This document shows, piece by piece, positions 3,571 through 48,014 of a stretch of DNA of 51,863 bases. Location: positions 1-51,863 of the forward strand of contig JAZNCT010000027.1 in the NCBI GenBank assembly GCA_045587665.1, in the 5' to 3' direction. Origin of the DNA: Eubacteriales bacterium. Its GTDB lineage: Bacteria; Bacillota; Clostridia; Oscillospirales; CAG-272. The position numbers and the translations under genes are program-made. Each line of letters opens with the position of its first letter. Position 1 is the first letter of the stretch. The notes beneath the pieces are model-generated. The model made no database searches, had not been told where the DNA came from, and saw only the letters and a program-made list of their open reading frames with translations.

Positions 3571-4530
3571 TTACATACCAAGTGTTGCTGCACCAACTAT
3601 GCCTGCGTCGTTTCCAAGCTTTGCTATGCGCAGCTCGGTTGCTTTAACAACACCGCCGCCGTAGGTTTCTGCCTTGATCAGCGGATCAAGCATATCAATG
3701 AGAATCTGACCCTCATTTGAAATGCCTCCGCCGATAGAAACAACCTCAGGCTGGAAGATATTGACTATATTTGCAAGACCTGTTGCCAGATAGGCGATAT
3801 ATGAGTCAACGACCTCTTTTGCGGCTTTGTCCCCCCTGTTCATAGCCATAAATGCTGTTCTTCCGCTAACCCTGCCATGTTCAGCGGCAATGTCGCTCAT
3901 GAGAGTGTGAATACCTGATTGCTTACATTCCTCGATCTTTTCTCTTGTCATGTTTATAAGACCTGTAGCAGAGCTGTAAGCTTCCCAGCAGCCCTTGCGT
4001 CCGCAAGAGCAGGGCTTGCCGCCGTGTTCAATAACGATGTGCCCAAGTTCAGCACCGGCAAAATTGAAGCCGGAATAAACCTTATTATCTATGATTATTC
4101 CGCCGCCAACGCCTGTTCCGAGAGTTATCATTATAGAATTGGATGTGCCCTTTGCGGCGCCGGCGATAGCTTCTCCCCAGGCAGCGGCATTGGCATCGTT
4201 TTCAACGTGAACGCTTCCTACGCCTGTAAGGGAAGAGATAAGCGAGCATATAGGGAATTTTCTGAAGGGAAGATTGTTTGCATATTCAACAATGCCGTCT
4301 GCGCTGTTGGCAATGCCGGGAGATGCGATGCCGATAGACTCGATTTCGTTCATGTCAATTCCGTTATCGGCTGTGATCTTTTTGCAAAGGTTTGCTATAT
4401 CCTGTGCAACCTTGTCGGCACCTTCGGTTACTACTGTGGGTACGCTGGACTTTGCGATGATCTTAAATTCCGAGTTAACAATACCTGCGGCGATATTTGT
4501 GCCGCCAAGGTCTATACCAATACGATACAT
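3571..4530 (-). CDS. ROK-family sugar kinase (glucokinase-like)
   Basis: IGIDLGGTN, ENDANAAAWGE, TLGTGVGGG, AELGH and CSCGRKGCWE Zn motif. No N-terminal HTH, so a kinase rather than a ROK repressor. Confidence 0.92.
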   Translation of the reverse strand: MYRIGIDLGGTNIAAGIVNSEFKIIAKSSVPTVVTEGADKVAQDIANLCKKITADNGIDMNEIESIGIASPGIANSADGIVEYANNLPFRKFPICSLISSLTGVGSVHVENDANAAAWGEAIAGAAKGTSNSIMITLGTGVGGGIIIDNKVYSGFNFAGAELGHIVIEHGGKPCSCGRKGCWEAYSSATGLINMTREKIEECKQSGIHTLMSDIAAEHGRVSGRTAFMAMNRGDKAAKEVVDSYIAYLATGLANIVNIFQPEVVSIGGGISNEGQILIDMLDPLIKAETYGGGVVKATELRIAKLGNDAGIVGAATLGM

Positions 4531-4599
4531 TTTAGATACCTCTCATGCTTTGATTTTGCCAAGAGTTAGAAAAAATACACCTTGGCACTGCATATAGAT

Positions 4600-4628
4600 A
4601 TTATAACTGTTATTTGCAATAAAGTCAA
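4600..4628 (-). promoter_or_regulatory. Sigma-A promoter of the ROK kinase gene
   Basis: Minus strand TTGACT (4628-4623), 17 bp, TATAAT (4605-4600). Confidence 0.7.
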
Positions 4629-5154
4629 CCTGATTCTGTATAAATATTAAAGAAAAAACACACAACCTTTTTCACCCGAAGAAAAGCACTGAATTTATCA
4701 TAAAAAGCCGATTGTTATAAAAATGAATAATTGTAAAAAAATGTAAAAACACTCGAAAAATGTGCGCTCAATTATGCCAAAAACGGAAAAAATAATGTTT
4801 TTGTGCATTTTGTATATGTGTAGAAAATTTGACCTTGTTTTTGTTGAAAATTCACAAAGAATTTTGGGCTTCAATAGGAATGGTGGAGATTTGACGCATA
4901 GGCGATTGGGTAAATTTTGCTTACGCAGATGCTGGAACGTCTATTGATATCGGATGTATCTGTGAAAATATGCACAAAAAAGCTATATGATGCGACGGAT
5001 TGTTGAAAATGTTGGTAAAATAAATTTACCATTGAGTTTTTTGAACAAATTTATAACAAATGATACCGATTTTGTGATGAAAAAAAGATCGCAAATTGAA
5101 GCATTTTGAACTTTTTAAAACGGTTTTGAGCCTTTCTTATATTAAATACAACGC

Positions 5155-5184
5155 TTGACATTTTTGGGTATTGTATGTTATTAT
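5155..5184 (+). promoter_or_regulatory. Sigma-A promoter (extended -10) of the ABC/DUF5696 operon
   Basis: TTGACA (5155-5160), 18 bp, TG-n-TATTAT (-10 at 5179-5184). Confidence 0.6.
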
Positions 5185-5533
5185 TATTGCATGAAAATAG
5201 GGCCAAATTATGCCCCTGAGCAAATAAATAGTGCTTTTCTGCTCTTGAAAAAGCTCATTTGGGGACGTGCTTGACCTTTGTGTTTCTGCGCATAGCGATA
5301 TGCTGCCGATGAGTTCGCTGTTTCTGCCGTTTTGGTGGTGGCGATGTGCGGTTTCTCTTGTCATTCGGGATTCCGCTTGCTTTGTCTGTCGGCAGATTTG
5401 CGATCGTTTGATTTTGCTTTTCTTTTTTTGGCCACGGCAGATCGGAAACAGACGGGCGGAAAGATCGCATGATGCCGCGCGACATTCTAACCCCGACACG
5501 GATGTGTCACAATTTTGCAGGAGGAATTTGCAG

Positions 5534-8500
5534 ATGATGAAAACACTACTTAAAAGATCAACGGCGTTTGCGCTTGCTTTGATCATGGCTATCGGTTGCG
5601 GTCAGTTTGCCGTCTTCGCTACCGATACAGAAGAGACTGCTGATGTGCTTGTCTCTGCCCCCATTGAGGTCACACCGGCTGAGGGTGACGGCGTGGGCGG
5701 TTCTTCGGTCTCTGATACCACCATTGAGGATGTCAGAGAAATTTTGAATGCTATTTCATATGAAGAGTATTCGGAAAAATTTGCTAACGTTGCCAGAGCA
5801 GAGCAGAGCTTGCATATAAGCGCACTCGACTATCTGGCTGACAAGACAGATGCCAAGGTTTCTGCCACGAAAGAATATCCCGCTGAGGATGGCAGTGAAC
5901 TTGAGTCTCTTTTCGTTCCCGGCGACGGTACTGTTGTTTGGGGCGTTGAGATTCCGGCAACTGCTAAATACAGTATTCAGCTTGAATATTATCCTATTGA
6001 GGCCAAATCGGTTCCGGTTCAAAGGATCTTCAGAGTAAACAGTAAGATCCCGTTTGCCGAGGCTCGTTACATAACGATGTCAAAGGTCTGGTCAAATACA
6101 TATGAAGAGCTTGATGCCGAGACAGGACGCAAATTTAAACTGGATATTGATAGAAATGAGCTTCGTCCTATGATGGCTCAGACCCCTGAATGGAGAGTTT
6201 ATGAGCTTCGCGACGGCGATGGCTTCTATTCTGAGAGCTTTGAGTTTGTTTTTGAGGCAGGCTACAATGAGATATCTCTCGAATCTGTGAGTGAGCCAAT
6301 GGCTCTTAAGAGCATTACTCTTGTTCCTCACACCGATCTTCCCAGCTATGAAAGCATTTCTGCAGACTATGCTTCAAAGGGGTATGCTCCCGCAGGCAAG
6401 GATGCTTATGTTCATTTTGAGGCAGAAGAACCGGTAGCAACTTCTTCGCAGACAGTATACCCTGTTGAAGATGTTTCTTCGGCAATAACTTCTCCCAGCG
6501 ATTCAACAAGAATCATTCTCAACACTATTGGCGGTGAGAAGTGGCAGACACCGGGTCAGTGGGCACGCTATAAGTTCACTCCCGAAAAGAGCGGTCTTTA
6601 TAATATTGTTACAAGATATAAGCAGAGTATAAACGATGGTCTTTACAGTTCCCGTACTCTCTATATCTATGGCGGCCAGTATAACGGAGTTCCTTTCTCC
6701 GAGGCAACTCAGCTTCGTTTTGGATACTCTTCCGAATGGCAGGTTGCAAAGCTTGGCGATGGCAATACCGAATTTGCTTTCTATTTTGAGGCAGGTACAG
6801 AATATACCATTGAGCTTGAGGTTTCTCTTGGCTCTATGGGCGATGTGGTTCGCCGCGTTGAAAGCGCTCTTACCAGAATCAACAATGCCTACCTTAATAT
6901 TATAAAGCTGACAGGCTCCAGCCCTGACAGCTACCGTGACTACGGCTTTTCACGTGTAATGCCTGAGGTGCTTAATGAGTTTATTCTTATGTCTCGTGAA
7001 ATAAACGATGTTTCTGAATATCTCGCTAATGTTGCCCGTGTTAAGGGTTCTCAGGTTGCAACACTTGACAGAGTTTCATGGCTTCTTGAAAAGATGGGCT
7101 CTGATGAGGATGTTATCGCCAAGAACCTCAGCGAGCTTAAGGCTTACATCGGTAACCTTGGTACATGGATAACAACAGCTAAGACTCAGCCTCTTCAGCT
7201 TGACTATATCGTTGTTCAGTCTACAGATGCAGAGCTTCCCGAGGCAACAGAAGGCTTCTTTAAGGCTTTCATGTTTGAAATTCAAAAGTTCTTTATGAGC
7301 TTTGTTCGTAACTATGACCGTGTAGGTTCTCAGGAAGAGCTTAAAGATGATGACGATGTTGTTGAGGTTTGGCTTGCATACGGTCGTGACCAGTCGCAGG
7401 TTATCAGAACTCTTGTAAACAACGAGTTCACTCCGCAGTCCGGCGTTTCCGTTAATTTGAAGCTTGTTGCGGGAGGTACACTTCTTCCTTCTATTCTTGC
7501 AGGCATGGGCCCCGATGTTTATATCGGTCTTGGACAGTCGGAGGTTATCAACTATGCTATCCGAAGCGCAGTTATGCCTATCGAACAAATGGAAAACTAT
7601 GATGAGGTTATCGGCTCCTTTAACGATGCGGCTATGATCCCGCTTGGAATTGAGGATGCTGAGGGCGTTTATCACTGCTATGGTCTGCCCGAAACTCAGC
7701 GATTCCCGATGATGTTCTATCGCAAGGACGTTCTTGCTGACCTTGGAATTGATATTCCTAAGACATGGGACGATATTCTTGCGGCAGTTCCTGTTCTCCA
7801 GGCAAACAACATGGAGATCGGTCTTACAACCGAATATAAGATGTTCCTCTATCAGAAGGGTGGAGAGCTCTTTGCTGATAACGGAATGAGAATAAATCTT
7901 GATGCTAATATTGCACTTGAATCCTTTGAGATGATGTGTAATATGTTTACAATGTATTCCTTCCCATATAACTATAACTTCACAAACCGTTTCAGAACAG
8001 GTGAGATGCCTATAGGAATTGCAACATACAGCGATACTTATAACAACCTTATAGTATTTGCAACCGAGATCGACGGACTTTGGGAATTTGCTCCTCTGCC
8101 CGGCATAATGGATGAAGAGGGCAATATAAACAATGTTTCGATTTCAACTATAACGGCAACTGTTATGATAGATGGCTGTGACAATCCCGAAGATGCTTGG
8201 AAGTTTATGCAGTGGTATTGCGGAGAAAGCTGCCAGATACAGTATTCAAACGAAATGGTTGCTATTCTCGGTGACTCTGCTAAGCACCCAACTGCAAACA
8301 TAAATGCGCTCTCCAGCTTGCCTTGGACAACAGATGAGCTGAACAACCTTGAACTTCAGTTCAACAACCTGGCATCTATTCCTAACTATCCCGGATATTA
8401 TTTTATCGACCGTTATACAGGCTTTGCTTTCCTTTCTGCTTATAACGATAAGGCAAATCCTGTAACAGAGCTTCTCAGTTACATAAATACTATCAACAAA

Positions 8501-8779
8501 GAGATAACTCGTAAGCGTGGCGAGTTTGGCCTTGAGACCCTTGAGGTTGGTCAAACACTTGCAGAAAAGCGCTTGGGTCAGGCTCTTGAAGCACTTGAGG
8601 AAATAAACAACGCATCCTACTCCGCTCAGATCGAGGCAGCAAAGGCAGCGATTGCAAGCGAGACGGATATACAGGCAATCAGTGCCGCAGCTGACGCTCT
8701 TGAAGCCGCTGATGCGACGCTCTTTGAGACAGTGATCGGATATCTCCGCGAGGCTTCCGCAGCATTGTCTACCTATTAA
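5534..8779 (+). CDS. Giant extracellular solute-binding protein (N-terminal CBM-like beta-sandwich region plus C-terminal sugar SBP family 1 domain)
   Basis: True start is most likely the ATG at 5534 after CAGGAGG, giving ~1081 aa. Signal peptide MMKTLLKRSTAFALALIMAIGCGQFAVFA; two FEAE/'GLYNIVTRY'-type beta-rich modules; a helical linker; then SBP motifs GRDQSQVI, YGLPETQRFPMMFYRKD, PKTWDD, FRTGEMPIGI and AWKFMQW. Confidence 0.85.
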   Translation: MMKTLLKRSTAFALALIMAIGCGQFAVFATDTEETADVLVSAPIEVTPAEGDGVGGSSVSDTTIEDVREILNAISYEEYSEKFANVARAEQSLHISALDYLADKTDAKVSATKEYPAEDGSELESLFVPGDGTVVWGVEIPATAKYSIQLEYYPIEAKSVPVQRIFRVNSKIPFAEARYITMSKVWSNTYEELDAETGRKFKLDIDRNELRPMMAQTPEWRVYELRDGDGFYSESFEFVFEAGYNEISLESVSEPMALKSITLVPHTDLPSYESISADYASKGYAPAGKDAYVHFEAEEPVATSSQTVYPVEDVSSAITSPSDSTRIILNTIGGEKWQTPGQWARYKFTPEKSGLYNIVTRYKQSINDGLYSSRTLYIYGGQYNGVPFSEATQLRFGYSSEWQVAKLGDGNTEFAFYFEAGTEYTIELEVSLGSMGDVVRRVESALTRINNAYLNIIKLTGSSPDSYRDYGFSRVMPEVLNEFILMSREINDVSEYLANVARVKGSQVATLDRVSWLLEKMGSDEDVIAKNLSELKAYIGNLGTWITTAKTQPLQLDYIVVQSTDAELPEATEGFFKAFMFEIQKFFMSFVRNYDRVGSQEELKDDDDVVEVWLAYGRDQSQVIRTLVNNEFTPQSGVSVNLKLVAGGTLLPSILAGMGPDVYIGLGQSEVINYAIRSAVMPIEQMENYDEVIGSFNDAAMIPLGIEDAEGVYHCYGLPETQRFPMMFYRKDVLADLGIDIPKTWDDILAAVPVLQANNMEIGLTTEYKMFLYQKGGELFADNGMRINLDANIALESFEMMCNMFTMYSFPYNYNFTNRFRTGEMPIGIATYSDTYNNLIVFATEIDGLWEFAPLPGIMDEEGNINNVSISTITATVMIDGCDNPEDAWKFMQWYCGESCQIQYSNEMVAILGDSAKHPTANINALSSLPWTTDELNNLELQFNNLASIPNYPGYYFIDRYTGFAFLSAYNDKANPVTELLSYINTINKEITRKRGEFGLETLEVGQTLAEKRLGQALEALEEINNASYSAQIEAAKAAIASETDIQAISAAADALEAADATLFETVIGYLREASAALSTY

Positions 8780-8826
8780 ATATTATAAACAACACAATTT
8801 AGACTAAAATATTAAGGAGAGAGCAT

Positions 8827-9774
8827 ATGTCACAGAAAACGGCTCAGAAAAAAGCGGTTTCGCGCAAGGATATGACAAAAGCTCAGTGGACATGGAAGGA
8901 AATGAAGAAGAACTGGGTTGCTTATGCAATGGTAGCGCCCTTCATGATCCTCTTCACTGTTTTTACGGTGCTTCCCGTTCTTTTGTCAATCGTTATCAGC
9001 TTTACCGACTTCAACCTGCTTGAAATGCCAAATTTCGTTTTCATGCAGAACTATATTACACTGTTCTTTGATGATGATATCTTCCTGCAGGCGGCTCAGA
9101 ACACCTTTGTGTTTGCCGTTATCGTAGGTCCCTCATCATATCTGATGTCTCTGCTGGTTGCTTGGTTCATTAACGAGCTGAGCCCCAGGATCAGAGCTAT
9201 CGTAACTCTTATCTTCTATGCACCTTCTATTTCCGGTCAGGTTTACCTCATTTGGGGTACTCTCTTCTCCGGAGACTCATACGGATGGGTAAACGGTGCG
9301 CTTCTTAACCTTGGTATCATAACCGAGCCGATCCAGTTCTTCCAAAATGCAAGCTACGTTATGCCTCTGTGTATCGTGGTTTCGCTCTGGACCTCACTTG
9401 GTACCTCATTCCTTTCATTTATCGCAGGTCTCCAAGGTATCGACCGTTCTCTTTACGAGGCAGCGGCGGTGGACGGCATCAAAAACCGTTGGCAGGAGCT
9501 ATGGTATGTGACCCTGCCTACGATGAAGCCTCAGCTGATGTTCGGTGCTATCATGTCTATCACATCATCCTTCGGCTTTGGCGGTATCGTTACATCACTT
9601 TGCGGCTTCCCCTCGGTTGACTATGCGGCGCATACTATCATGCACCACCTTGAAGACTACGGTGGACAGCGATTTGAAACAGGCTATTCTTCTGCTATTG
9701 CGGTTATACTGTTTGCAGTTATGATAGGTGCAAACGTATTCGTTAAAAATTTGATTTCAAAGGTGGGACAATAA
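8827..9774 (+). CDS. Carbohydrate ABC transporter permease (MalF/UgpA-type)
   Basis: Multiple TM segments; EAA loop LYEAAAVDG...WYVTLP. Confidence 0.92.
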   Translation: MSQKTAQKKAVSRKDMTKAQWTWKEMKKNWVAYAMVAPFMILFTVFTVLPVLLSIVISFTDFNLLEMPNFVFMQNYITLFFDDDIFLQAAQNTFVFAVIVGPSSYLMSLLVAWFINELSPRIRAIVTLIFYAPSISGQVYLIWGTLFSGDSYGWVNGALLNLGIITEPIQFFQNASYVMPLCIVVSLWTSLGTSFLSFIAGLQGIDRSLYEAAAVDGIKNRWQELWYVTLPTMKPQLMFGAIMSITSSFGFGGIVTSLCGFPSVDYAAHTIMHHLEDYGGQRFETGYSSAIAVILFAVMIGANVFVKNLISKVGQ

Positions 9775-9775
9775 T

Positions 9776-10651
9776 ATGGCGACAAAACTCAGAACCAGAA
9801 AACATAAAGTTGTCCTTAACCGCAGTGCGGGAGGCGACGCCGGCATTACATTTATGCTGACAATTCTCGGAGCATTCATGTTCCTCCCAATGGTTTATGT
9901 TGTAATGCAGTCACTTAAACCACTTGACGAGCTTTTCATGTTCCCGCCGAGATTTTACGTTATGAATCCTACATTCCAGAACTTTAAGGACCTCTTCACT
10001 CTCATGAATACCTCAATGGTTCCTTTCTCAAGGTACATATTCAATACGGTATTCACTTCGGTGGCAGGTACAACCGGTAACCTTTTCTTCTCTTCACTTG
10101 CTGCATATGCACTTGCGAAGATCAAGTTTCCCGGAGCAAAGCTGATGTTCTCAACAGTCAGAACTTCTCTTATGTTCCATTCAACGGTTACAGGTATCAC
10201 CAGCTTTATCATCATGGCATCCCTTAAGTGGGTCGATACATATTGGGCAATCATCATCCCCGCATTCTGTACTTCACTTGGTCTTTACCTTATGAAGCAG
10301 TTTATGGAAACTAACGTTTCAGATGCGGTTCTTGAGAGCGCACGTCTTGACGGTGCAAGTGAGATCAAGACCTTCTGGGTAATTGCAATGCCAATGGTTA
10401 AGCCTGCTTGGCTTACACTTATCATTTATTCGTTCCAGGGACTTTGGAACGCAGGAGCATCTATCTATATCCACAGCGAGCAGCTCAAATCCTTCAACTA
10501 TGCTATTAACCAGATAGTTGCCGGCGGTATCCGCCGTTCGGGTGCTTCTGCCGCATCAACGGTTATTATGATGCTTGTTCCTATTCTCGTATTCGTTATT
10601 ACACAGTCTAACATTATCGAAACCATGGGTTCCAGTGGTATGAAGGATTAA
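9776..10651 (+). CDS. Carbohydrate ABC transporter permease (MalG/UgpE-type)
   Basis: SLKP..ELFMFPP, AAYALAKIKFPG and EAA loop LESARLDGASE...IAMPMVKP. Confidence 0.92.
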   Translation: MATKLRTRKHKVVLNRSAGGDAGITFMLTILGAFMFLPMVYVVMQSLKPLDELFMFPPRFYVMNPTFQNFKDLFTLMNTSMVPFSRYIFNTVFTSVAGTTGNLFFSSLAAYALAKIKFPGAKLMFSTVRTSLMFHSTVTGITSFIIMASLKWVDTYWAIIIPAFCTSLGLYLMKQFMETNVSDAVLESARLDGASEIKTFWVIAMPMVKPAWLTLIIYSFQGLWNAGASIYIHSEQLKSFNYAINQIVAGGIRRSGASAASTVIMMLVPILVFVITQSNIIETMGSSGMKD

Positions 10652-10663
10652 GGAGGAAAGCAA

Positions 10664-12802
10664 ATGAAAAGGTTTTTAAATACACTTTGTTTGATATTTG
10701 CTTTGGTTATGCTGATGACGACAGTTGTCAGTGCCGCTGCTCCTTATCAGACTTATACATATTCGATCAACGGATTTGCTCTTTATTCTCCGGATGCTTA
10801 TGTTCCGATAATGAGGGTTGACTCTGATTATATGGGTCTTGACGCACCCCTTGAGGGTATTAGCGATATGGTTACGGATGAGAACGGAAATGTATATCTT
10901 GTTTCATCTGTTAATAATGAGCTTATAGTTCTTGACTCATATTACAAAAAGAAGTTTACTGTTAAGAACTTTGTAAATGACCAGGGCGTTCCGGATGAAT
11001 TTACAAGTCCCCGTGGCGTGTTTGTTACAAAAGACAGGATCTTTGTTTGCGATACAGACGCAAGCCGTATCGTAACATTTGACCTTGAAGGTAACTTTCT
11101 TGCTATTATTCCTCAGCCCGAATCAAACCTCTTTACAGAGGGTTCAACCTACAGCCCGATAGCACTTGCTGTTGACCAATATGACCGTTTGTATGTTGTT
11201 TCTTCAACAACCTATCAGGGTGTTATAGTTATGACAGACGAGGGTCAGTTTACTCAGTTTGTCGGTGCGCAGAAGGTTGTTGCAAGCCTTTGGCAGCTGA
11301 TATGGAGAACATTCCAGACCGATGAGCAGAGAGCTCTTTCTCAGTCTTTCATTTCAACAGAGTTCAATAATATCAGCATAACAGATGACGGCTTTATCTA
11401 TGTTACAACACAGTCTCTTGATGAGGGTAAGCAGCAGGGCGCAATTACAGGTCAGGATAAATCCGGTGACTATGCTCCTGTTAAGCTTCTCAATGCTTCC
11501 GGTGTTGAGATCATGAGAAGAAACGGCTTCTATCCTCCCTCCGGTGAGGTTGACGTTTCCAATCTTTCAACAGATAAGATAATTGGTCCTTCAAGAATAA
11601 CCGATGTTGCTGTGGGCCCTGAAAAGACTTGGTCTATAGTTGACCAAAAGCGTTCTAAAGTGTTTACCTATGATTTCGACGGCAATCTGCTTTTTGCCTT
11701 TGGTAATGAAGGAACTATGCTTGGTAACATCGCTTATATAGCTTCTATCACATATCAGGGCGACATTCTTATGATGCTCGATACCGGTAACGATAAGAAC
11801 AATACTATCACAATATTTAAGAGAACAGAATACGGTGATGCACTGATACAGGCACTTGCTTATCAGAATGACCGTAAATATGACCAGGCTATCGAATCAT
11901 GGATAGAGATCCTCAAGAGAAACAGTAACTTTGATACTGCTTATATCGGTATCGGTCAGTCACTCTTCCGCCAGGGTGAGTATGCTGAGGCAATAGAATA
12001 TTATCAGTCTGCTTATGATACGGCCAACTATTCGGATGCTTATAAGGAGCTCCGCAAAGAGTGGATCTCAAAATATCTCTTTGTTCTTCTGGCTGTTATC
12101 GTTGTAGTTTTGATCCTTATATCCAAGTTCCTCAAATATGCTAAAAAGGTTAACTACAAAACCAGTATCTCGGTTGGCAAACGTACATATAAGCAGGAGC
12201 TTCTGTATGTTTTCCACTTGATATTCCATCCATTTGACGGCTTCTGGGATCTGAAGCACGAAAAGCGCGGATCTGTTCGTGCAGGTATAACTATAATAGC
12301 AGTAACGATACTTGCTTTCTATTATCAGTCTATCGGTCAGGGATATATTATGAATCCCGAGGGTGTATATTCATCTATCTTTGTACAGTTTGCATCGGTG
12401 CTTGCACCATTCTTCCTTTGGGTTGTTGGTAACTGGTGCCTCACAACTCTCTTTGAGGGTGAGGGTAGCTTCAGAGATATCTTCATTGCTTGTGCATACT
12501 CCCTTGCACCTGTGCCGATAATGGTTGTTCCTTCAACAATTTTCTCAAATGTTGTTACCTCTTCCGAAACAGCGATCATCAGCCTTCTCGTAACTGTTGG
12601 TTACATTTGGCTTGGTCTGCTTATATTCTTTGGAATGATGGTTACACATGATTATTCGCTTTCCAAAAACGTTCTTACTTCTGTTGGTACTATAATCGCT
12701 ATGGCGTTTATTATGTTCCTTGCGATACTGTTTACAACGCTTCTTGGTAAGGTTGTAAGCTTCTTTACTAACATTATTGATGAGATAAGTTACCGACTAT
12801 AA
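10664..12802 (+). CDS. Secreted NHL-repeat beta-propeller + TPR + Yip1-domain membrane fusion protein
   Basis: Signal peptide, then PYQTYTY; NHL repeats (FTSPRGVFVTKDRIFVCDT, PIALAVDQYDRLYV); TPR helices (AYIGIGQSLFRQGEYAEAIEYY); one TM; then the Yip1-like HPFDGFWDLKHEKRG and five hydrophobic helices. Confidence 0.82.
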   Translation: MKRFLNTLCLIFALVMLMTTVVSAAAPYQTYTYSINGFALYSPDAYVPIMRVDSDYMGLDAPLEGISDMVTDENGNVYLVSSVNNELIVLDSYYKKKFTVKNFVNDQGVPDEFTSPRGVFVTKDRIFVCDTDASRIVTFDLEGNFLAIIPQPESNLFTEGSTYSPIALAVDQYDRLYVVSSTTYQGVIVMTDEGQFTQFVGAQKVVASLWQLIWRTFQTDEQRALSQSFISTEFNNISITDDGFIYVTTQSLDEGKQQGAITGQDKSGDYAPVKLLNASGVEIMRRNGFYPPSGEVDVSNLSTDKIIGPSRITDVAVGPEKTWSIVDQKRSKVFTYDFDGNLLFAFGNEGTMLGNIAYIASITYQGDILMMLDTGNDKNNTITIFKRTEYGDALIQALAYQNDRKYDQAIESWIEILKRNSNFDTAYIGIGQSLFRQGEYAEAIEYYQSAYDTANYSDAYKELRKEWISKYLFVLLAVIVVVLILISKFLKYAKKVNYKTSISVGKRTYKQELLYVFHLIFHPFDGFWDLKHEKRGSVRAGITIIAVTILAFYYQSIGQGYIMNPEGVYSSIFVQFASVLAPFFLWVVGNWCLTTLFEGEGSFRDIFIACAYSLAPVPIMVVPSTIFSNVVTSSETAIISLLVTVGYIWLGLLIFFGMMVTHDYSLSKNVLTSVGTIIAMAFIMFLAILFTTLLGKVVSFFTNIIDEISYRL

Positions 12803-12826
12803 CGATTACAGATAGGAGAGATAAAA

Positions 12827-15715
12827 ATGAAAATGAAAAGAATAACTTCGCTGCTCTTAACTGTACTGTTGGTGCTCGGTAGTATCAATTTTACAGCCAT
12901 AGGCGTTTTTGCGGCTGATATCAACAAGGATGCAAAGGCAAAATACCAATCCTATTTTACGGCAGAATATAATTCCGCCGAGGACAGAATTGCGGCAATG
13001 GAACTCTATGCTGTTGTTGACGGTATGGAGATATATTGCGATTCTTTCTCAGGTGAGGTTGCTGTCAAGGAGATAGCTTCAGGTCAAGTGCTTTTGACAA
13101 ACCCCTACAGTGTTGGATCATCCAAGGCCTCACAGGACCAGAAGACTGAGTTGCTTTCACAGATCATAGTTGAATACAGTGACAACGGTCAGTCTAAATT
13201 CCTTAATTCTTTCAAGGATGCAATGGATCAGATAACCTATAGCAGACAGATCAATGTTGAGAGAATTAAAAATGGACTTCGAGTTGAATACTCGCTTGGT
13301 AGCGAGCAGAGCCGTCTTCTTGTTCCAAAGCTAATAAACAAAGAAAGATTCCAGACAGAGATACTTGCAAATGTAACGGATGCAGCTGCAAAGAGTCAGC
13401 TTCTCGCGTTCTATTCACTGAAGGATCCTGCAATGGAAAAGGAGAAGATCAGAGAGGCTATCTACAAGAGATGGCCGATCACAGAGGAAATGCCTATATA
13501 CGTTCTTCCTACTGACGGAAACGGTGCTGTTACCGCAAACGACCAGAAAGACATCGAAGCGATCATCAAGCAGTATTGCCCTGCATATACCTTTGAAGAT
13601 CTTGACTATGACCACTCCCTCACTAAGTTTGAAGGCATAGACAGAGAGCCCGTAAACTTCAGAATGGCTCTTGAATATGTAATAGACAACGGTCAGCTTG
13701 TGGTTACCCTTCCTGCAAACGGTATTCTTTATAACGAAGAAGAGTATACACTTGAAAATATAACAATTCTTCCTTATATGGGTGCAGGTACTAATCCCAA
13801 TTCAGGTTATACATTCCTTCCCGATGGCTCGGGTGCAATATTCAAGTTTGAAGAGCTGGTTGACACAACAACAACTATCTTTACAGACCTTTACGGCGTT
13901 GACTATGCTTACCAGACTATAACAGGAACATATCAGCAGCCCGGCAGAATCCCTGTTTACGGACTTGTTGAAAACGAGGATGTTTACAGGACTGTTGCTA
14001 TCGAAAAGGATATCCCTTCAGATCTGACAACCGATGATGATGCGGCAGATGTGGCTGAAAACGCTGAGTCAGATGAGCCTAAAACAGAAACTGTTTATGA
14101 AAAAGAATTTGTTCGCAATCAGGATAGAGGCTTTGTTGCCATTATCGAAGAAGGCGAAGCAATGAGCAAGCTTACCACCTACCACGGCGGTGCAATGCAC
14201 GAGTATAATACAATTAAGCTTTCGGTTACCCCAAGACCAAAAGATTCTTATAATCTTTCAACGGCAATTTCCGTAGGTTCAAATGACATATGGACTGTTG
14301 TTTCCGAAAGACGTTACACAGGTAACTATAAGGTAAGATATGTCATGCTTACAGATGACACTGTTGCTGCTGAGAACGACCTCACAGATACATATGAAAC
14401 ATCCTGGAAGGGTATGGCAGAGGCTTACAGAGATTATCTTATCGACAAGGGAATTATAACAAAGCTTACCGATGCTGATCTTGGCGACGGAATACCGCTT
14501 TACATTGAAACTTTCGGCTCAATGGAAAGCATTGAAAAGATACTTTCTATTCCTGTAACCGTTATGACGGCTATGACTTCCTTTGAAAATGTTCAAACTA
14601 TGTATAATGATCTTTCTTCGGAAGGAATCAAGAACATCAACTTCAAGCTTACAGGCTATGCGAACGGTGGTATGACCTCAACCGTGCCCTATAAGCTGAA
14701 ATGGGAAAAGTCGGTTGGCGGTAAGGACGGATTTGAAGCGCTTTTGGCTGATGCAAAGGAAAAGGACTACGGAATTTATCCTGATTTTGATTTTGCATAT
14801 ATCAACAAAACCTCAATGTTTGACGGAGTCAGCCTTAAAAAGCACGCAGTTAAGTCCATAGATAACCGCTACACAAGTAAGCGTATCTACAGTGCGGCAA
14901 GACAGAATTATGCTTCATATTTCCAGCTTGCACTTTCTCCTGCATATTATTATCGCTTTATTGATAAGCTGGCAGAAAGTTATACCCAGTATGATCCTAT
15001 AGGAATTTCGGTTTCAACTCTCGGAAACACTCTTAACTCCGACTTTGATCAGAAGGAGCCATATAACCGCGAGGACAGCAAGAATTATACTATAGACGCA
15101 TTTGAAAGCCTTGGAGCTTCCTATAACAGTGTTATGACAAGCGGAGGCAATGCCTACACATGGAAGGAAGCAGATCATATTCTTGAAATACCGCTTGATT
15201 CCAGCCGATACAATATTGCAACATACACAGTTCCGTTTATCGGATATGTGCTTCACGGCTACAAGAACTTTACCGGATCTGCTATCAATATGGCAGGTGA
15301 TATCCGATATGAGGTTCTGAAGTGTATTGAAAACGGTGCATATATGTACTTTATTATGTCCTATGATAACACCGAGCTTCTGAAGGACGATGAGCTTCTC
15401 AGTAAATATTATTCTATCAGATATGATATCTGGCAGGAGGATGTTATAGAGCTTTATAAAGAGCTTAACGAAGTTCTTGAGCCTCTTCAGACACAGTCTA
15501 TCGTAGATCATGAATTCCTTATCGGTCAGCGAATTCTTGCAGAGGGCGAGGAGCTTGATGAGGATAATATGGATAAGTACACAACTATGGATGATGGCCG
15601 CATAGTTAAGGTAACATATGAAAACGGCACAACATTCATTCTTAACTACAACTATTTTGGTGTCACTGTCGAGGGTCAGGAAATTGATGCCTACGGCTAC
15701 GTGAAGCTTAATTAA
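12827..15715 (+). CDS. DUF5696-family secreted protein (putative glycoside-hydrolase-like fold)
   Basis: Signal peptide; LPYMGA...GYTFLPDGSGA, PVYG, MTSFENVQTM..L, GYANGG, GGKDGFEAL and VPFIGYVLHGY motifs recalled for DUF5696; lies between ABC permeases, as is usual for this family. Confidence 0.75.
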   Translation: MKMKRITSLLLTVLLVLGSINFTAIGVFAADINKDAKAKYQSYFTAEYNSAEDRIAAMELYAVVDGMEIYCDSFSGEVAVKEIASGQVLLTNPYSVGSSKASQDQKTELLSQIIVEYSDNGQSKFLNSFKDAMDQITYSRQINVERIKNGLRVEYSLGSEQSRLLVPKLINKERFQTEILANVTDAAAKSQLLAFYSLKDPAMEKEKIREAIYKRWPITEEMPIYVLPTDGNGAVTANDQKDIEAIIKQYCPAYTFEDLDYDHSLTKFEGIDREPVNFRMALEYVIDNGQLVVTLPANGILYNEEEYTLENITILPYMGAGTNPNSGYTFLPDGSGAIFKFEELVDTTTTIFTDLYGVDYAYQTITGTYQQPGRIPVYGLVENEDVYRTVAIEKDIPSDLTTDDDAADVAENAESDEPKTETVYEKEFVRNQDRGFVAIIEEGEAMSKLTTYHGGAMHEYNTIKLSVTPRPKDSYNLSTAISVGSNDIWTVVSERRYTGNYKVRYVMLTDDTVAAENDLTDTYETSWKGMAEAYRDYLIDKGIITKLTDADLGDGIPLYIETFGSMESIEKILSIPVTVMTAMTSFENVQTMYNDLSSEGIKNINFKLTGYANGGMTSTVPYKLKWEKSVGGKDGFEALLADAKEKDYGIYPDFDFAYINKTSMFDGVSLKKHAVKSIDNRYTSKRIYSAARQNYASYFQLALSPAYYYRFIDKLAESYTQYDPIGISVSTLGNTLNSDFDQKEPYNREDSKNYTIDAFESLGASYNSVMTSGGNAYTWKEADHILEIPLDSSRYNIATYTVPFIGYVLHGYKNFTGSAINMAGDIRYEVLKCIENGAYMYFIMSYDNTELLKDDELLSKYYSIRYDIWQEDVIELYKELNEVLEPLQTQSIVDHEFLIGQRILAEGEELDEDNMDKYTTMDDGRIVKVTYENGTTFILNYNYFGVTVEGQEIDAYGYVKLN

Positions 15716-15732
15716 AGAGAGGAGAAAAAACT

Positions 15733-16698
15733 ATGACAAATAATGCAGTTCAGGCGCCAAAGAAAAGAAGACGCGCCGCTTCTCTTGACAAGCGTAAGGC
15801 ACGTGCCGGTTGGATTTTTGTTCTGCCCTTTGCAATAGGCTTTTTGCTTGTATATCTTCCGATTTTGTTTGATTCGGTCATATTCAGCTTCCACCACGTA
15901 AGTGCTAGATCCGGCGGCGGTATGATACTTGAGTGGGTTGGTCTTGATAACTTTAATCAGGCGCTGTTCGTAAACCCTAATTACATCCAGACCCTTGTTT
16001 CCGGTCTTGGTCAGATGGCATTTGATATTCCTGCTATCGTAATCTTTTCACTCTTTATGGCGGTTCTTCTTAACACAAAGATGGTTGGACGTGCCGCATT
16101 CCGTGCAATATTCTTTATTCCCGTTATCCTTTCAACAGGCTTTATGGCTTCCCTTGAGTCGGGCAACATTCTTTCCGGCTATATGGATAGCACATCGGGT
16201 ATTGCAGACGGTTCAGGTCATAGTGCCTCGCAGGATATTATTTCGATTCTCGATTTTGAAAACATGTTTGACCAGATGAAGGTCGGCGTAGAGATCGTTT
16301 ATGTTGTTGTCGGTATTATAAATAATATTTATGATATCGTAAACCGCAGCGGTGTTCAGATGCTTATCTTCCTTGCAGGCTTGCAGTCTATTTCACCTGC
16401 AATATATGAGTCCTGCCAGATCGACGGTGCTTCCGGTTGGGAGACTTTCTGGAAGATCACCTTCCCCATGATCAGCCCTATGATCCTTGTTAATGCAGTT
16501 TATACTATCATCGACTCGTTCACTGCCGAATCAAATCTTGTCATGAGATTTATTGAAAGCGTGGACAGCGGTCCTACCCCTCACGGCGGCGTTATCAGCT
16601 CTGCAATGTCATGGATGTACTTTATAGTAGTAATCCTTATCGTTGCAGCTGTTGCGGGTATATTCTCTGCATACGTATTCTATCAAAGACGTGATTAA
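15733..16698 (+). CDS. Carbohydrate ABC transporter permease (second MalF-type)
   Basis: TM segments; FRAIFFIPVI, GVQMLIFLAGLQSI and EAA loop YESCQIDGASGWETFWKITFP. Confidence 0.92.
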   Translation: MTNNAVQAPKKRRRAASLDKRKARAGWIFVLPFAIGFLLVYLPILFDSVIFSFHHVSARSGGGMILEWVGLDNFNQALFVNPNYIQTLVSGLGQMAFDIPAIVIFSLFMAVLLNTKMVGRAAFRAIFFIPVILSTGFMASLESGNILSGYMDSTSGIADGSGHSASQDIISILDFENMFDQMKVGVEIVYVVVGIINNIYDIVNRSGVQMLIFLAGLQSISPAIYESCQIDGASGWETFWKITFPMISPMILVNAVYTIIDSFTAESNLVMRFIESVDSGPTPHGGVISSAMSWMYFIVVILIVAAVAGIFSAYVFYQRRD

Positions 16699-16711
16699 GG
16701 AGGTATGATAA

Positions 16712-17767
16712 ATGGACGCACAAAACACAGTTAAAAAACCAAGAGTTACAAAAGAAACCAAGAACAAAATTCGCGTTGATTTTGAAAGAACTCCTTTAAA
16801 AGAAAGACTGAAGGCTAAATTTGGAACATCTTATATTTACCAAAAGGTTTTCCTTGCGATATTCCGCTTTGTTCTCCTTATCGGTATCTCATATATAGTA
16901 TTGTTCCCCTTCATATCAAAAATCGCATCTTCATTTATGGGCATGTCGGATTTCGTTGATGCAACGGTTCGTCTTATCCCTAAAGCATTCACCTTAAATA
17001 CCTACAAGGCGGTATTTGTAGAGCTTAGATATTTTGAAGCATTTTTCAATACCTTTACGCTTTCTATTCTTTCTGCAATACTTCAGACATTCTCGTGCTG
17101 TGTTATTGCATATGGATTTGCAAAGTTTAAGTTTAAGGGCAACAAGCTTCTGTTTATGCTGGTAATGCTCACAATGATCATTCCTCATCCAACACTCAAG
17201 CTTTCAATGCTTCAAAATTTCAAGGACTTTGATGTGCTGGGAATCTTTGGGCTTCTCGCAAAGATCGGTATTGTTCCCGATAGTATGGCATACGGTCTGA
17301 GACTCACCAATACATATTGGCCTCTCGTAATTCTTTCAGCTTGCGGCCTTGCGTTTAAGAACGGTCTTTATATCTTTATGCTAAGACAGTTCTTCCGCGG
17401 AGTTCCGGATGAGCTTGAAGAATCGGCATATATTGACGGTTCAGGTGTTTTCCGCACCTTCTTTACCATCATTATACCGCTTTCTGTACCTATGCTTATC
17501 ACAGTATTCCTCTTCTCATTCTCATGGCAGTGGACAGACAACTATTATATAGATCTGTTCTTCCCGGCAGGCAGAATGTGGAACTGGTCTAATGTTGTTA
17601 AAGAAATTCCTGTTTCGCTAAAGACAACATACGCAGGAGCAAATCTCTTCAATCAGGCTATTCACAATACTGCAGGTATGATGGCTATCGCACCGCTGAT
17701 AATCCTCTATCTGTTCTGCCAGAAGTTCCTTGTTCAGGGTATTGAGCGTTCGGGTATCGTAGGCTAA
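16712..17767 (+). CDS. Carbohydrate ABC transporter permease (second MalG-type)
   Basis: AYGFAKFKFKG, RQFFRGVPDELEESAYIDG, FSWQW and QKFLVQGIERSG. Confidence 0.92.
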   Translation: MDAQNTVKKPRVTKETKNKIRVDFERTPLKERLKAKFGTSYIYQKVFLAIFRFVLLIGISYIVLFPFISKIASSFMGMSDFVDATVRLIPKAFTLNTYKAVFVELRYFEAFFNTFTLSILSAILQTFSCCVIAYGFAKFKFKGNKLLFMLVMLTMIIPHPTLKLSMLQNFKDFDVLGIFGLLAKIGIVPDSMAYGLRLTNTYWPLVILSACGLAFKNGLYIFMLRQFFRGVPDELEESAYIDGSGVFRTFFTIIIPLSVPMLITVFLFSFSWQWTDNYYIDLFFPAGRMWNWSNVVKEIPVSLKTTYAGANLFNQAIHNTAGMMAIAPLIILYLFCQKFLVQGIERSGIVG

Positions 17768-17786
17768 TGTTTAAATAACAATTTCC

Positions 17787-17818
17787 AAAGGGCTGAGATC
17801 AACTCAGCCCTTTTTTTT
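17787..17818 (+). terminator. Rho-independent terminator closing the ABC/DUF5696 operon
   Basis: AAAGGGCTGAG-atcaa-CTCAGCCCTTT stem ending in a T8 run. Confidence 0.88.
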
Positions 17819-21669: not shown

Positions 21670-23670
21670 ATGGCAAAAAGCAAAGATACCGCAAAACAAT
21701 ATAACGATCAAAGCATAACTTCGCTGAAAGGAGCCGACCGAGTTAGAAAACGTCCGGCTGTTATTTTTGGCTCTGACGGTCTTGAAGGCTGTGAACATTC
21801 AATTTTTGAGATACTCTCAAACTCGGTTGACGAGGCCAGAGAGGGATATGGAAAAGAGATAATAGTCACCGCATATCTTGATAGATCTATTAAGGTTGAG
21901 GATTTTGGCCGTGGAGTTCCTCTCGGTTATAACGAGAGGGAAGGAAAATATAACTGGGAGCTTGTTTACTGTGAGCTTTATGCCGGCGGTAAATATGATA
22001 ACAACTCAGAGGATTCGGCATATGGCTATTCACTTGGAACAAACGGTCTTGGCGCATGTGCAACACAGTACAGCTCCGAATATATGGATGTTTTTTCATA
22101 TGACGGAACAAAGGTGAGCGAGATACATTTTAAAAAAGGTGAGCCGATAACAGAGCTATCTGTTCGTGAGCTTGAACGCAAAGAGAAACGCACCGGCACT
22201 GTTATAAAATGGCGTCCCGATCTTGAGGTCTTTACCGATATAAACATCCCCAGAGAGTTTTTTGACGACGTGATGCACCGTCAGGCTGTGGTAAACTCGG
22301 GTATTAAATTTGTTTTCAAATATGAGCTTCCTGACGGAAAGTTTGAGGAAAAGTCATATTATTATGAAAACGGTATTGCCGATTATCTCCGTGAGCTGGC
22401 AGGCGAGAATACCATGACCGCTCCCGTTCTCTGGAAAATGGAGACTAAGGGTAGGGACAGAGAGGACAAAGAGGAATATAAGCTTAAGGCGGAATTTTCC
22501 TTTTGTGTTTCCAATACGGTAAACCGACTTGAATATTATCACAACTCCAGCTATCTTGAGCACGGAGGTTCTCCCGATAAGGCTGTAAAAACCGCCTTTG
22601 CTTATGCAGTTGATAAATATTTGAAGGGTGCAAACAAATATAACAAAAATGAGAAGAAGATAACATTTGACGACATTGCAGACTGTCTTGTTCTCGTTAT
22701 AAACAGCTTTTCAACCGTTACCTCTTACGAGAACCAGACCAAGAAATCTATAACTAACAAGTTTATCGCTGATGCGATGACAGAATTCTTAAAGAGAAAT
22801 CTTGATATCTACTTTATCGAAAATCCTACCGAGGCAGAGGTCTTTGCAAATCAGGTTCTTGTTAATAAGAGAAGTCGTGAAAGTGCGGAGAATACACGAA
22901 TAAACATTAAGGAAAAGCTCACAGGCACGCTTGATATCTCAAACAGGGTTGAAAACTATGTTGACTGCCGCACAAAGGACCCCAAAAAGAGAGAGGTCTA
23001 TATCGTGGAGGGAAAATCGGCGCTCGGTTCCTGTAAACTTAGCCGTAATGCAGAATTTCAAGCACTTATATCTGTCAGAGGCAAAACGCTGAACTGCCTT
23101 AAATGCGGCTATGACCGAATTTTTAAGAGCGATATTATTGTGGACCTGCTGAGAGTAATCGGATGCGGCGTTGAAATGGACGGCAGAATAAAGGGTAATA
23201 TCCCGAGATTTGATATGAATCTGCTTCGCTGGTCGAAGATAATTATATGTACCGATGCGGACGAGGACGGCTTCCAGATCAGAACCTTGCTTTTGACTAT
23301 GTTTTACCGCCTGCTTCCCACACTTATAGAGCAGGGAAAGGTGTTTATTGCCGAAACTCCTCTCTTTGAAATAACAACTAAAAACGAGACGTTTTTTGCA
23401 TATGACGAATTTGAAAAGGCAGATATCCTTCGTAAGCTGGGGGATCAGAAATATAAGCTCCAGCGTTCAAAGGGTCTTGGTGAGAACAGCGCGGATATGA
23501 TGGCTCTTACCACCATGAATCCGGCAACAAGACGCCTTATTGCGGTTACCCCTGCAGATGCTGCGGCAACAGAGAGGATATTTGAAACATTGCTTGGAGA
23601 CGATCTTCCTGCGAGAAAAGAGTTTATTGCCGTTCATGGCAGTGAATATGTTAAGGATGCGGATATTTAA
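21670..23670 (+). CDS. Type IIA DNA topoisomerase subunit B (divergent GyrB/ParE-like)
   Basis: GHKL ATPase motifs (VRKRP, EILSNSVDE, DFGRGVP, AGGKY), TOPRIM (IVEGKSA, TDADEDG) and C-terminal RSKGLGE..TTMNP. Too divergent to choose between gyrB and parE by eye. Confidence 0.9.
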   Translation: MAKSKDTAKQYNDQSITSLKGADRVRKRPAVIFGSDGLEGCEHSIFEILSNSVDEAREGYGKEIIVTAYLDRSIKVEDFGRGVPLGYNEREGKYNWELVYCELYAGGKYDNNSEDSAYGYSLGTNGLGACATQYSSEYMDVFSYDGTKVSEIHFKKGEPITELSVRELERKEKRTGTVIKWRPDLEVFTDINIPREFFDDVMHRQAVVNSGIKFVFKYELPDGKFEEKSYYYENGIADYLRELAGENTMTAPVLWKMETKGRDREDKEEYKLKAEFSFCVSNTVNRLEYYHNSSYLEHGGSPDKAVKTAFAYAVDKYLKGANKYNKNEKKITFDDIADCLVLVINSFSTVTSYENQTKKSITNKFIADAMTEFLKRNLDIYFIENPTEAEVFANQVLVNKRSRESAENTRINIKEKLTGTLDISNRVENYVDCRTKDPKKREVYIVEGKSALGSCKLSRNAEFQALISVRGKTLNCLKCGYDRIFKSDIIVDLLRVIGCGVEMDGRIKGNIPRFDMNLLRWSKIIICTDADEDGFQIRTLLLTMFYRLLPTLIEQGKVFIAETPLFEITTKNETFFAYDEFEKADILRKLGDQKYKLQRSKGLGENSADMMALTTMNPATRRLIAVTPADAAATERIFETLLGDDLPARKEFIAVHGSEYVKDADI

Positions 23671-27551: not shown

Positions 27552-28364
27552 ATGAACATTCTGTCATTTGCAAGAGAACTGCTGAGAGCAGAGAAAATTG
27601 AATATGTTTCTGCCCTGTCTCTTGCGGATTGCAGAGTGGTGCGTCCATATCTTCTGAGCAGAGCAGGTATTGGCGGAGAGGGCAGTGCAATTATTTTTGC
27701 CGTTCCGTATTATGCCTTAGATGAAGGAGAGATAAACCTCTCTCTTTACGCTTTGCCGAGAGACTATCATCTATACTTTTCACAGCTTTTTGAAAGAATT
27801 TTGCCAAGGCTTAGAGAAAGATTTCCCGGGCATATCTTCGAGGGCTTTGCCGATCATTCTCCTATCGACGAGATAGATGCAGCCGCCAAAGGCGGGCTTG
27901 GGGTCGTTGGCAAAAACGGTCTTATTATAACAGAAAAATATTCTTCATATGTTTTTCTCGGTGAGATAATATGCTCGGCAAAATGTGGTGAGATACCCCA
28001 CAGAATAAAGGAATGTGAGAACTGCGGTAAATGTGCCGCGGCCTGCCCCGTGCACCTTGACAAAGGCAAATGCCTCTCTGCAATATCGCAGAAAAAGGGT
28101 GAGCTGACAGATGCGGAGAAAACGGCTCTTTTCACATCAGGCAGTGTGTGGGGCTGTGACATTTGCCAAAGTGTTTGCCCACATTCGGGGAAGGCAGAGA
28201 ACACCCAAATAGATTTTTTTTGGCAAAAGCGTTTGAATTATTTAAAAACAGAGACAATAGAGAATATGAGTGATGAGGATTTTGCCGAAAGGGCATATTC
28301 TTGGCGAGGCAGAGACGTTATACTCAGAAATTTAAGAATATTCGGGAGCAAAGATGAGCATTAG
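27552..28364 (+). CDS. Epoxyqueuosine reductase-like Fe-S protein (QueG family)
   Basis: YALPRDYH, DHSPIDE..AA..GGLG..GKNGL, YVFLGEI, and two 4Fe-4S motifs CENCGKCAAACP and WGCDICQSVCP. Confidence 0.8.
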   Translation: MNILSFARELLRAEKIEYVSALSLADCRVVRPYLLSRAGIGGEGSAIIFAVPYYALDEGEINLSLYALPRDYHLYFSQLFERILPRLRERFPGHIFEGFADHSPIDEIDAAAKGGLGVVGKNGLIITEKYSSYVFLGEIICSAKCGEIPHRIKECENCGKCAAACPVHLDKGKCLSAISQKKGELTDAEKTALFTSGSVWGCDICQSVCPHSGKAENTQIDFFWQKRLNYLKTETIENMSDEDFAERAYSWRGRDVILRNLRIFGSKDEH

Positions 28365-39003: not shown

Positions 39004-39024
39004 TTTTTTATCAGCTCCTTTCAT

Positions 39025-46894: not shown

Positions 46895-46911
46895 ATCTAT
46901 TTTTGGAGAAC

Positions 46912-47961: not shown

Positions 47962-48014
47962 AATAAAGGGGCTGCTTCATTTGAATGAAGAAGCCCTTTT
48001 TTGCGGAGGTTTTT

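Follow-up and report, generated by a model that had tools for sequence, protein, structure and literature searches.

What kind of system is built from two complete pairs of sugar-import permeases, a single solute-binding protein (SBP) of giant size, a fusion of NHL, TPR and Yip1 domains and a large protein of the DUF5696 family? The question is raised by seven adjacent genes in the stretch of DNA shown above, contig C27 of a Clostridia genome (G000; 1.73 Mb, 94.9% complete); by the window we mean this whole stretch, 51,863 nucleotides long. Our preferred answer, held with moderate confidence, is that the seven products form one multi-subunit oligosaccharide-import gate that relies on a shared ATPase of the MsmX type and on interchangeable receptors encoded elsewhere. 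It draws on direct observations: the anatomy of the locus, the co-inheritance of its genes, the loss of the catalytic pair of glycoside hydrolase (GH) family 129, the EAA loops of the four permeases, an orphan msmX gene and an excess of receptors over permeases.

The cassette and its conservation

The seven open reading frames (ORFs) occupy 5534-17767 of the forward strand in the order SBP-P1-P2-NHL/Yip1-DUF5696-P3-P4, where P1 to P4 denote the four permeases in gene order. The giant SBP, P1 and P2 are called module A, and the NHL-TPR-Yip1 protein, DUF5696, P3 and P4 module B. The features of the locus are as follows.

5155-5184, forward strand: sigma-70-like promoter match (TTGACA-18-TATTAT, 11/12 plus a TG extension), about 350 nt 5' of the first start
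5534-8779, forward strand: giant solute-binding protein, 1081 residues (Pfam SBP_bac_1, predicted structure)
8827-9774, forward strand: permease P1, MalF/UgpA type (BPD_transp_1; EAA loop)
9776-10651, forward strand: permease P2, MalG/UgpE type (BPD_transp_1; EAA loop)
10664-12802, forward strand: NHL propeller, TPR, transmembrane helix and Yip1 domain in one protein of 712 residues (Pfam, NCBIfam and PDB matches)
12827-15715, forward strand: DUF5696, an exported GH129-fold protein of 962 residues (Pfam E 1e-143, predicted structure)
15733-16698, forward strand: permease P3, MalF type (BPD_transp_1; EAA loop)
16712-17767, forward strand: permease P4, MalG type (BPD_transp_1; EAA loop)
17787-17813, forward strand, and 17857-17828, reverse strand: back-to-back terminator-like hairpins, at the operon end and for the convergent shikimate kinase gene
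3571-4530, reverse strand: ROK-family sugar kinase, divergent (Pfam/NCBIfam), starting about 1 kb from the cassette

A first-pass annotation of this DNA had described seven tightly packed genes with two permease pairs and one SBP; the ORFs, their spacing (47, 1, 12, 24, 17 and 13 nt, each below 50) and the Pfam matches agree with it. It was also right that no ATPase, regulator or recognised hydrolase is encoded within 5534-17818, and that a ROK kinase gene is divergent, though this lies about 1 kb away. The first cassette gene starts at an ATG at 5534, preceded by an AGGAGG site; the GTG at 5267 called by the ORF finder was rejected as too far upstream. As for the claim that a single promoter and a strong terminator bound the operon, a promoter-like site and hairpins are indeed present. 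Because these are pattern matches (promoter-like patterns numbered 59 where 36.6 would be expected) and RNA runs are not on record, we infer, rather than observe, that the seven genes form a single transcript. The 344-nt leader folds no better than its shuffles (z 0.57) and has no Rfam match, and a search for an operator palindrome gave no clear one. The interval between the ROK gene and the cassette (4531-5533) is a 1-kb AT-rich intergenic region with divergent promoter-like sites.

By sequence comparison, the seven genes represent a single copy of a cassette conserved in Bacillota. Two surveys bear on this, one of 301 genomes across the phylum, each at least 90% complete, and one of 121 genomes of the order. 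DUF5696 was matched in 22 of the 301 genomes. The NHL-Yip1 gene occurs in those 22 genomes and, as a contig-end fragment, in G292. The giant SBP was likewise matched in all 22, and also in G142 and G200, where it lies on contigs of 3.8 and 4.3 kb that end inside P1; no DUF5696 was found elsewhere in these two genomes. A cut fragment of the giant SBP is present in G116. At the level of the order, NHL-Yip1 is found in 61 of the 121 genomes, and one exception is G039, where DUF5696 lies close to the start of a contig and NHL was not matched. As for gene order, 27 of 40 diverse DUF5696-centred loci have the plain seven-gene arrangement and two more have it together with an additional permease fragment at the border of the locus, the others being rotated (3), four-gene NHL-DUF-P3-P4 blocks (7) or cut (1). 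Among the 80 closest loci, 62 show the full seven; in the remaining 18, part of the block is present with its order kept, as would be expected from short contigs. All five genomes with four-gene copies that were tested also carry the giant SBP with P1/P2, in full cassettes or alone. Thus, modules A and B are always found in the same genome in these samples, and the co-occurrence and synteny survey revealed no independent assortment of the accessory genes from the permeases, which the first-pass annotation had said would count against its reading. One-to-one copy numbers of the two modules were considered and dropped: the apparent match came from capped scoring, and G090 holds at least seven copies of B and four of A. 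In G000 itself, none of the three large genes has a second copy. The closest named loci belong to uncultured Clostridia, many of herbivore-gut origin according to their records.

The permeases and the three large proteins

By its core parts the cassette is a CUT1 importer, as judged from MalF- and MalG-type BPD_transp_1 permeases (four matches), an EAA coupling loop in all four window permeases and in the consensus, and a family-1 SBP (PF01547 and fold match). A strict EAA pattern matched 33 of 115 P1 and 62 of 117 P3 proteins, the shortfall coming from family variants. It is not an ordinary CUT1 importer: in place of one lipoprotein SBP of about 430 residues per permease pair, it has one SBP of 1081 residues for two pairs. 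A permease tree set P1 apart from P3, but with a support of just 0.34 for P1, and was not retained; correlations of between-subunit distances (0.61-0.82) were uncorrected for shared ancestry and were not used as evidence.

Only residues 625-894 of the giant SBP, in the last 40% of the protein, are covered by SBP_bac_1 (PF01547, E 6e-19). The predicted structure (pLDDT 86) begins with a signal peptide and two beta-sandwiches at about 90-430, which are CBM35/CBM6-like and give a CBM35-like profile match. They are followed by a four-helix bundle (435-550), an amphipathic helix (575-591, moment 0.54), the family-1 binding domain (about 605-997) and extra C-terminal helices. By fold matches in the PDB, this domain is nearest to Lin1841 and to a cycloisomalto-oligosaccharide-binding protein, relatives that handle large ligands (beta-1,2-glucan and cyclic isomalto-oligosaccharides, respectively). 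Stand-alone proteins of about 430 residues close to the binding domain (E ~1e-95; L197:3723-5003 and L198:9168-10442) occur in genomes of family f28; each genome has two of them, away from any cassette gene, and they could reveal the ligand.

The subunits differ in conservation. Over 30 diverse cassettes, mean identity is highest for P1 (53%), followed by P2 (49%), the giant-SBP binding domain (42%), P4 (39%), P3 (38%) and NHL-Yip1 (35-37%), and is lowest for DUF5696 (27-29%). At 17 loci with both kinds of SBP, the giant domains share 46% identity vs 22% for the ordinary SBPs. Residues W613, R677, R821, N922 and Y956 of the giant SBP are invariant in 50 of 50 proteins, and R618 and D619 are kept in 48; on alignment to Lin1841, these residues probably line the cleft.

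The predicted structure of DUF5696 (pLDDT 90) has GH129 as its top fold match (5opq, E 1e-27; NagBb, 3.6e-21), followed by GH101, GH36 and GH31. The likeness to GH129 (Foldseek probability 1.0, profile E 6e-9, hhalign 99.9%, identity 10-11%) was reached by profile and fold only, a single-sequence search of the PDB giving no match, and Pfam PF11308 was not matched in G000 at E 1e-8. The architecture is that of GH129, with an N-terminal beta domain, a (beta/alpha)8 barrel and a C-terminal beta domain. The catalytic positions were placed through an alignment of 12 GH129-like proteins, tied to NagBb, and through profile comparison. The Asp and Glu that correspond to D435 and E478 of NagBb, which we take to be the nucleophile after strand 4 and the acid/base after strand 5, are invariant in all 12. 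DUF5696 of the window has Ser730 and Ser772 at these two positions, and is therefore likely to be a pseudo-enzyme, a dead GH129. Indeed, in none of 117 DUF5696 proteins, a set weighted toward close relatives, are both acids present at these positions; at most 2 have Asp at 730, never together with an acid at 772. Six have an Asp one residue past 730 plus an acid at 772, and some activity is possible there. The cleft has few conserved residues. By its catalytic residues, then, this is not a GH129 enzyme, and the suggestion in the first-pass annotation that DUF5696 could be a hydrolase is not supported.

In the close lineage, relatives of DUF5696 (proteins P0121, P0128, P0143, P0160 and P0172; loci L063, L066 and L127) are extended at the C terminus by alanine-rich tails, which add as many as about 1500 residues, are not matched by Pfam and may form long helical stalks. 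Separate GH129-like proteins of about 480-575 residues with both acids intact are encoded at L134-L138 (genomes G012, G001, G014, G010 and G015), close downstream of rpoC in several congeners.

The 712-residue protein has TPR and Yip1 regions by Pfam, and its NHL part was recognised through NCBIfam ScyF and NHL proteins of the PDB; in many relatives it is split into two separate genes. When its TPR-Yip1 part (385-712) was modelled with P3 and P4, the complex scored 0.62 vs 0.13 for the best of three controls, and swapping out P4 lowered the score to 0.13. In the model, the last Yip1 helix (677-711) packs on a helix of P4 (51-65) and on P3 173-199; the runs share at least 90% of contacts, with partner pLDDT of 76-77. 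Of 157 solved complexes, 116 attained the mark used for interfaces, as did 2 of 215 mismatched pairs. Yip1 is thus predicted to clamp onto P3/P4, and one inter-subunit interface, of the kind that the first-pass annotation had named as a check, finds support in this controlled model. Recall of a solved complex as the source of the score seems unlikely, since a PDB search matched the TPR and NHL parts only.

A lipobox-like pattern is found in just 10 of 112 homologues of the giant SBP, and in 9 of 135 and 8 of 132 for the other two large proteins. Each of the three large proteins keeps a hydrophobic surface element, which in DUF5696 is a protruding hairpin with a hydrophobic tip (565-582). The two features together suggest tethering through the membrane or through partners.

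An orphan ATPase, orphan receptors and linked enzymes

The first-pass annotation had noted that the cassette has no ATPase. This absence is ordinary for CUT1 importers, and an ATPase of the MalK/MsmX group is available in the genome as an orphan gene (G000:C47:23062-24178, or L011:798-1914). In the assembly this gene is split by a frameshift. Near-identical contigs, from two runs of a single study to which the source sample may belong, have two extra bases that put msmX in frame, 172 bases being otherwise identical, and the gene is intact in 4 of 4 relatives; the frameshift is therefore likely an assembly error.

Receptors without permeases are also present. G000 encodes three orphan receptor lipoproteins of about 500 residues with no permeases of their own, and two SBPs that lie beside P4 in a related locus (L094) best match two of them (E 2e-26 and 1e-20). 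A profile seeded with the L094 SBPs and the matching G000 lipoproteins found 3 members in G000, 1 to 37 in 29 of 41 relatives, and members in 1 of the 301 genomes across the phylum. In the order, the family is found in 22 of 121 genomes, exactly the 22 that carry the best-scoring, single-copy NHL-Yip1 (at least 879 bits, the next best scoring 738). No CUT1 permease is near any of 33 receptor genes in 20 regions; a lipobox-like pattern is present in 24 of the 33, and 15 paralogues of one genome share 31% identity. Of nine receptor-carrying genomes, seven have no MalG-type match other than P2 and P4 of the cassette, compared with 25 matches in a control genome. Those seven hold 31 (G029), 20 (G022), 16 (G036) and at least 12 each (G353, G424, G394 and G399) receptors; G040 and G417 have one MalG-type gene beyond P2 and P4.

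The neighbours of the cassette, surveyed by scanning 159 of 196 unlabelled ORFs of at least 200 residues, depend on the lineage. At diverse loci they include GH26, GH43, GH10, GH5, GH2, GH31, GH29, GH42, GH78, GH106 and GH130, as well as pectate lyases and LacI/AraC regulators, so that the linked enzymes vary among mannan, xylan and pectin. An ordinary SBP of 430-660 residues lies within the retrieved stretch at 19 of 40 diverse loci vs 2 of 80 close loci. Around the cassette of the close lineage, the genes are mostly housekeeping ones, a ROK gene being nearby in 22 of 91 closely related loci, and the attempt to read a substrate from these neighbours failed. G000 as a whole has six GH26 matches (near mannanases), two AXE1 acetyl-esterase lipoproteins and two GH2 proteins; no GH130, GH94 or GH16 was matched in it, leaving a phosphorylase route unsupported. 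From the GH26 genes, one may guess that the cargo in this genus is most likely to be beta-mannan fragments. It is no more than a guess, as the cassette is retained by several congeners that have a single GH26.

GH26 itself is expanded in the genus (G000-G015): six congeners, with genomes of 1.9-3.1 Mb, have 59, 40, 32, 28, 24 and 14 matches, G000 has 6, five other congeners have 1 each and nine same-order genomes of other families have none. The expanded forms include lipoproteins, LRR fusions and small cytoplasmic proteins, nearest to PDB 12NQ/12OA/12NX and mannanases; a literature search found no paper on this expansion.

Elsewhere in the window, an acetyl-esterase-like gene (43755-44747; AXE1/glucuronyl esterase, weak matches) overlaps lnt, the two AXE1 lipoproteins encoded elsewhere being larger, and a divergent GyrB/ParE-like gene (21670-23670) falls below all curated cut-offs and has no adjoining ORF of GyrA/ParC size. 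Four ORFs have no Pfam match: 37345-39024 (559 residues), 46903-47961 (352), 47985-48902 (305) and 28354-29103 (249).

One import gate or several systems

A counterpart of the cassette has been reported under other names. In Caldicellulosiruptor bescii, the locus xloEFG-X-GH129-axoFGE (Athe_0174-0181) has the same order: an SBP, two permeases, an NHL-repeat protein (X), a 'GH129' and two permeases. From gene order and labels alone, it is probably the same cassette. In the accessible text of PMC8579813, the locus is predicted to be two importers, no role is given to X or GH129, and its genes are induced on xylan; the CUT1 importers of C. bescii have no ATPase of their own, and growth on oligo- and polysaccharides is impaired when msmK is deleted. 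Next in the locus come an ordinary SBP and xylanases, controlled by XynR/AraR (XynR binding upstream is confirmed in PMC12285236), whereas the window cassette has no linked receptor, enzyme or regulator. Athe_0181 has been studied as a helper without catalytic activity, according to PMC10492685. A literature search found no mechanistic study of the cassette in what were mostly papers outside subscription, and no paper on DUF5696 by name; a term search of the accessible text of two transporter reviews (PMC13543919 and PMC11212667) found none of the relevant cassette terms. In the literature found, and as far as its accessible text goes, the mechanism is thus undescribed, the C. bescii locus being annotated as two separate importers.

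The annotation of that locus, with two transporters, a putative GH129 and xylan induction throughout, speaks for an improbable alternative, in which the transcript would simply combine two ordinary CUT1 importers, each working independently, with a scaffold protein and a GH129-like glycosidase that is active at the surface. That modules A and B can be encoded apart, and that six DUF5696 proteins have acids at or near the catalytic positions, fit with it. The window DUF5696, with its two serines, does not, and a single enzyme specificity would be unfit for linked genes as different as GH26, GH43, GH10, GH106, GH78, GH29 and pectate lyases. Moreover, conservation of the giant SBP and of P1/P2 far exceeds that of substrate-specific importers, and the Yip1-P3/P4 model passed its controls. 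A version of the proposal in the first-pass annotation is a complex that itself captures and threads long glycans, with the CBM-like domains of the giant SBP as a capture arm and DUF5696 as the binding subunit of P3/P4. The two CBM35/6-like sandwiches, the large ligands of the nearest relatives and the rarity of ordinary SBPs at close loci speak for this scheme, and a dead barrel could still bind glycan. The binding role of DUF5696 is made doubtful by the ordinary SBPs at nearly half of the diverse loci and the receptors supplied in trans in this lineage, as well as by the low conservation of DUF5696 and of its cleft, and the scheme as a whole appears unlikely. Little credence is given to a non-catabolic machine, which would handle envelope or lipid-linked glycans or act as a sensor, with the orphan lipoproteins as unrelated adhesins or sensors. 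In its favour, the close lineage has a single copy of the cassette, set among housekeeping genes, the invariant residues of the giant SBP take no account of the linked enzymes and the orphan receptors are rarely near sugar genes. Diverse genomes, on the other hand, multiply the cassette among glycosidases, lyases, LacI/AraC regulators and sugar SBPs, and the C. bescii counterpart, according to the accessible text cited above, is induced by xylan.

Several observations weigh against a single gate with plug-in receptors. In some genomes the two modules stand apart from each other, and there B outnumbers A; four genomes of the phylum hold 430-residue relatives of the giant domain without any cassette gene; and in the complete genome of one relative an IS110 transposase (L023:5887-7212) interrupts P2. 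The 22 receptor genomes of the order belong to four related families, and the receptor-carrying genomes considered here to five, so that the match between receptors and cassette may be one evolutionary event, and 4 of the 29 relatives with the receptor family lack a strong DUF5696 match (three of them being 72-85% complete). The SBP fold of the receptors is weakly supported (Pfam E 5e-7 and 1.7e-8 for single members, hhalign probability 48%), a PDB search gave no match to an orphan receptor, their neighbours are mostly housekeeping genes (71 of 111 neighbours scanned), and the three orphans of G000 could use its two other complete CUT1 operons. The modelled interface is a single one and shows support, not binding; the job, with three chains and its own alignments, lay outside the calibration set and concerned hydrophobic helices.

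On balance we retain the import gate. Two CUT1-type permease pairs, the giant SBP, the propeller-Yip1 protein and the dead GH129-fold protein would form one import machine, powered by the shared MsmX-type ATPase of the genome, to which interchangeable receptor lipoproteins encoded elsewhere would hand over their cargo. Module B may be the substrate-variable gate where ordinary receptors dock, with the pseudo-hydrolase and the propeller as non-catalytic scaffold or glycan-guiding subunits, probably held at the membrane by hydrophobic loops and not by lipid anchors. Module A may be the invariant core, whose ligand would be independent of the linked enzymes. Imported sugars would be cleaved and then phosphorylated by the ROK kinase. 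A bolder form, which we put forward tentatively as it is rather less likely than not to hold in full, would make the cassette a twin-channel, seven-subunit ABC supercomplex, the general glycan gate of a large uncultured group of gut Clostridia. Yip1 would be a permanent subunit of an ABC importer, the dead GH129 and the propeller a docking platform into which dozens of scattered receptors plug interchangeably, and the giant SBP with P1/P2 would gate or sense, not select, the sugar.

Such a machine would resemble several known systems. With CUT1 importers that share an ATPase (the MalEFG type; MsmK/MsmX of C. bescii, S. pneumoniae and B. subtilis) it has in common MalF/MalG permeases, EAA loops, a family-1 domain and an operon that lacks the ATPase, the MsmX-type gene being an orphan. 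It differs from them in its two fixed permease pairs, its non-lipidated SBP of about 1000 residues, the NHL-TPR-Yip1 and DUF5696 proteins and the up to 31 counted receptors per single cassette. DUF5696 shares its overall fold with GH129 (NagBb 5WZN, ZgGH129 5OPQ) and GH101, and is set apart from them by Ser for Asp and Glu, the hydrophobic hairpin, insertions and the constant linkage to permeases. Expansions of orphan receptors of the Bug/TctC type feed few transporters; many receptors per gate are likewise proposed here, by analogy, the proteins being unrelated. In Bacteroidota, SusCD systems and utilisomes are multi-protein surface assemblies for glycan capture. The cassette may be their analogue in function only, as it would be ATP-driven, Gram-positive and located in the cytoplasmic membrane, and no TonB-dependent barrel or SusD lid family was found by Pfam among its seven proteins.

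The uptake of fibre fragments by Gram-positive gut bacteria is far less understood than the SusCD route of Bacteroidota, and a similar locus is present in C. bescii, a biomass degrader open to genetics. If the seven proteins do form one machine, bacterial Yip1 proteins and DUF5696 would gain a function, the 'GH129' annotations would be corrected and the large families of orphan binding proteins in uncultured Clostridia would be explained. Engineering of sugar uptake would also have a platform into which receptors can be plugged.

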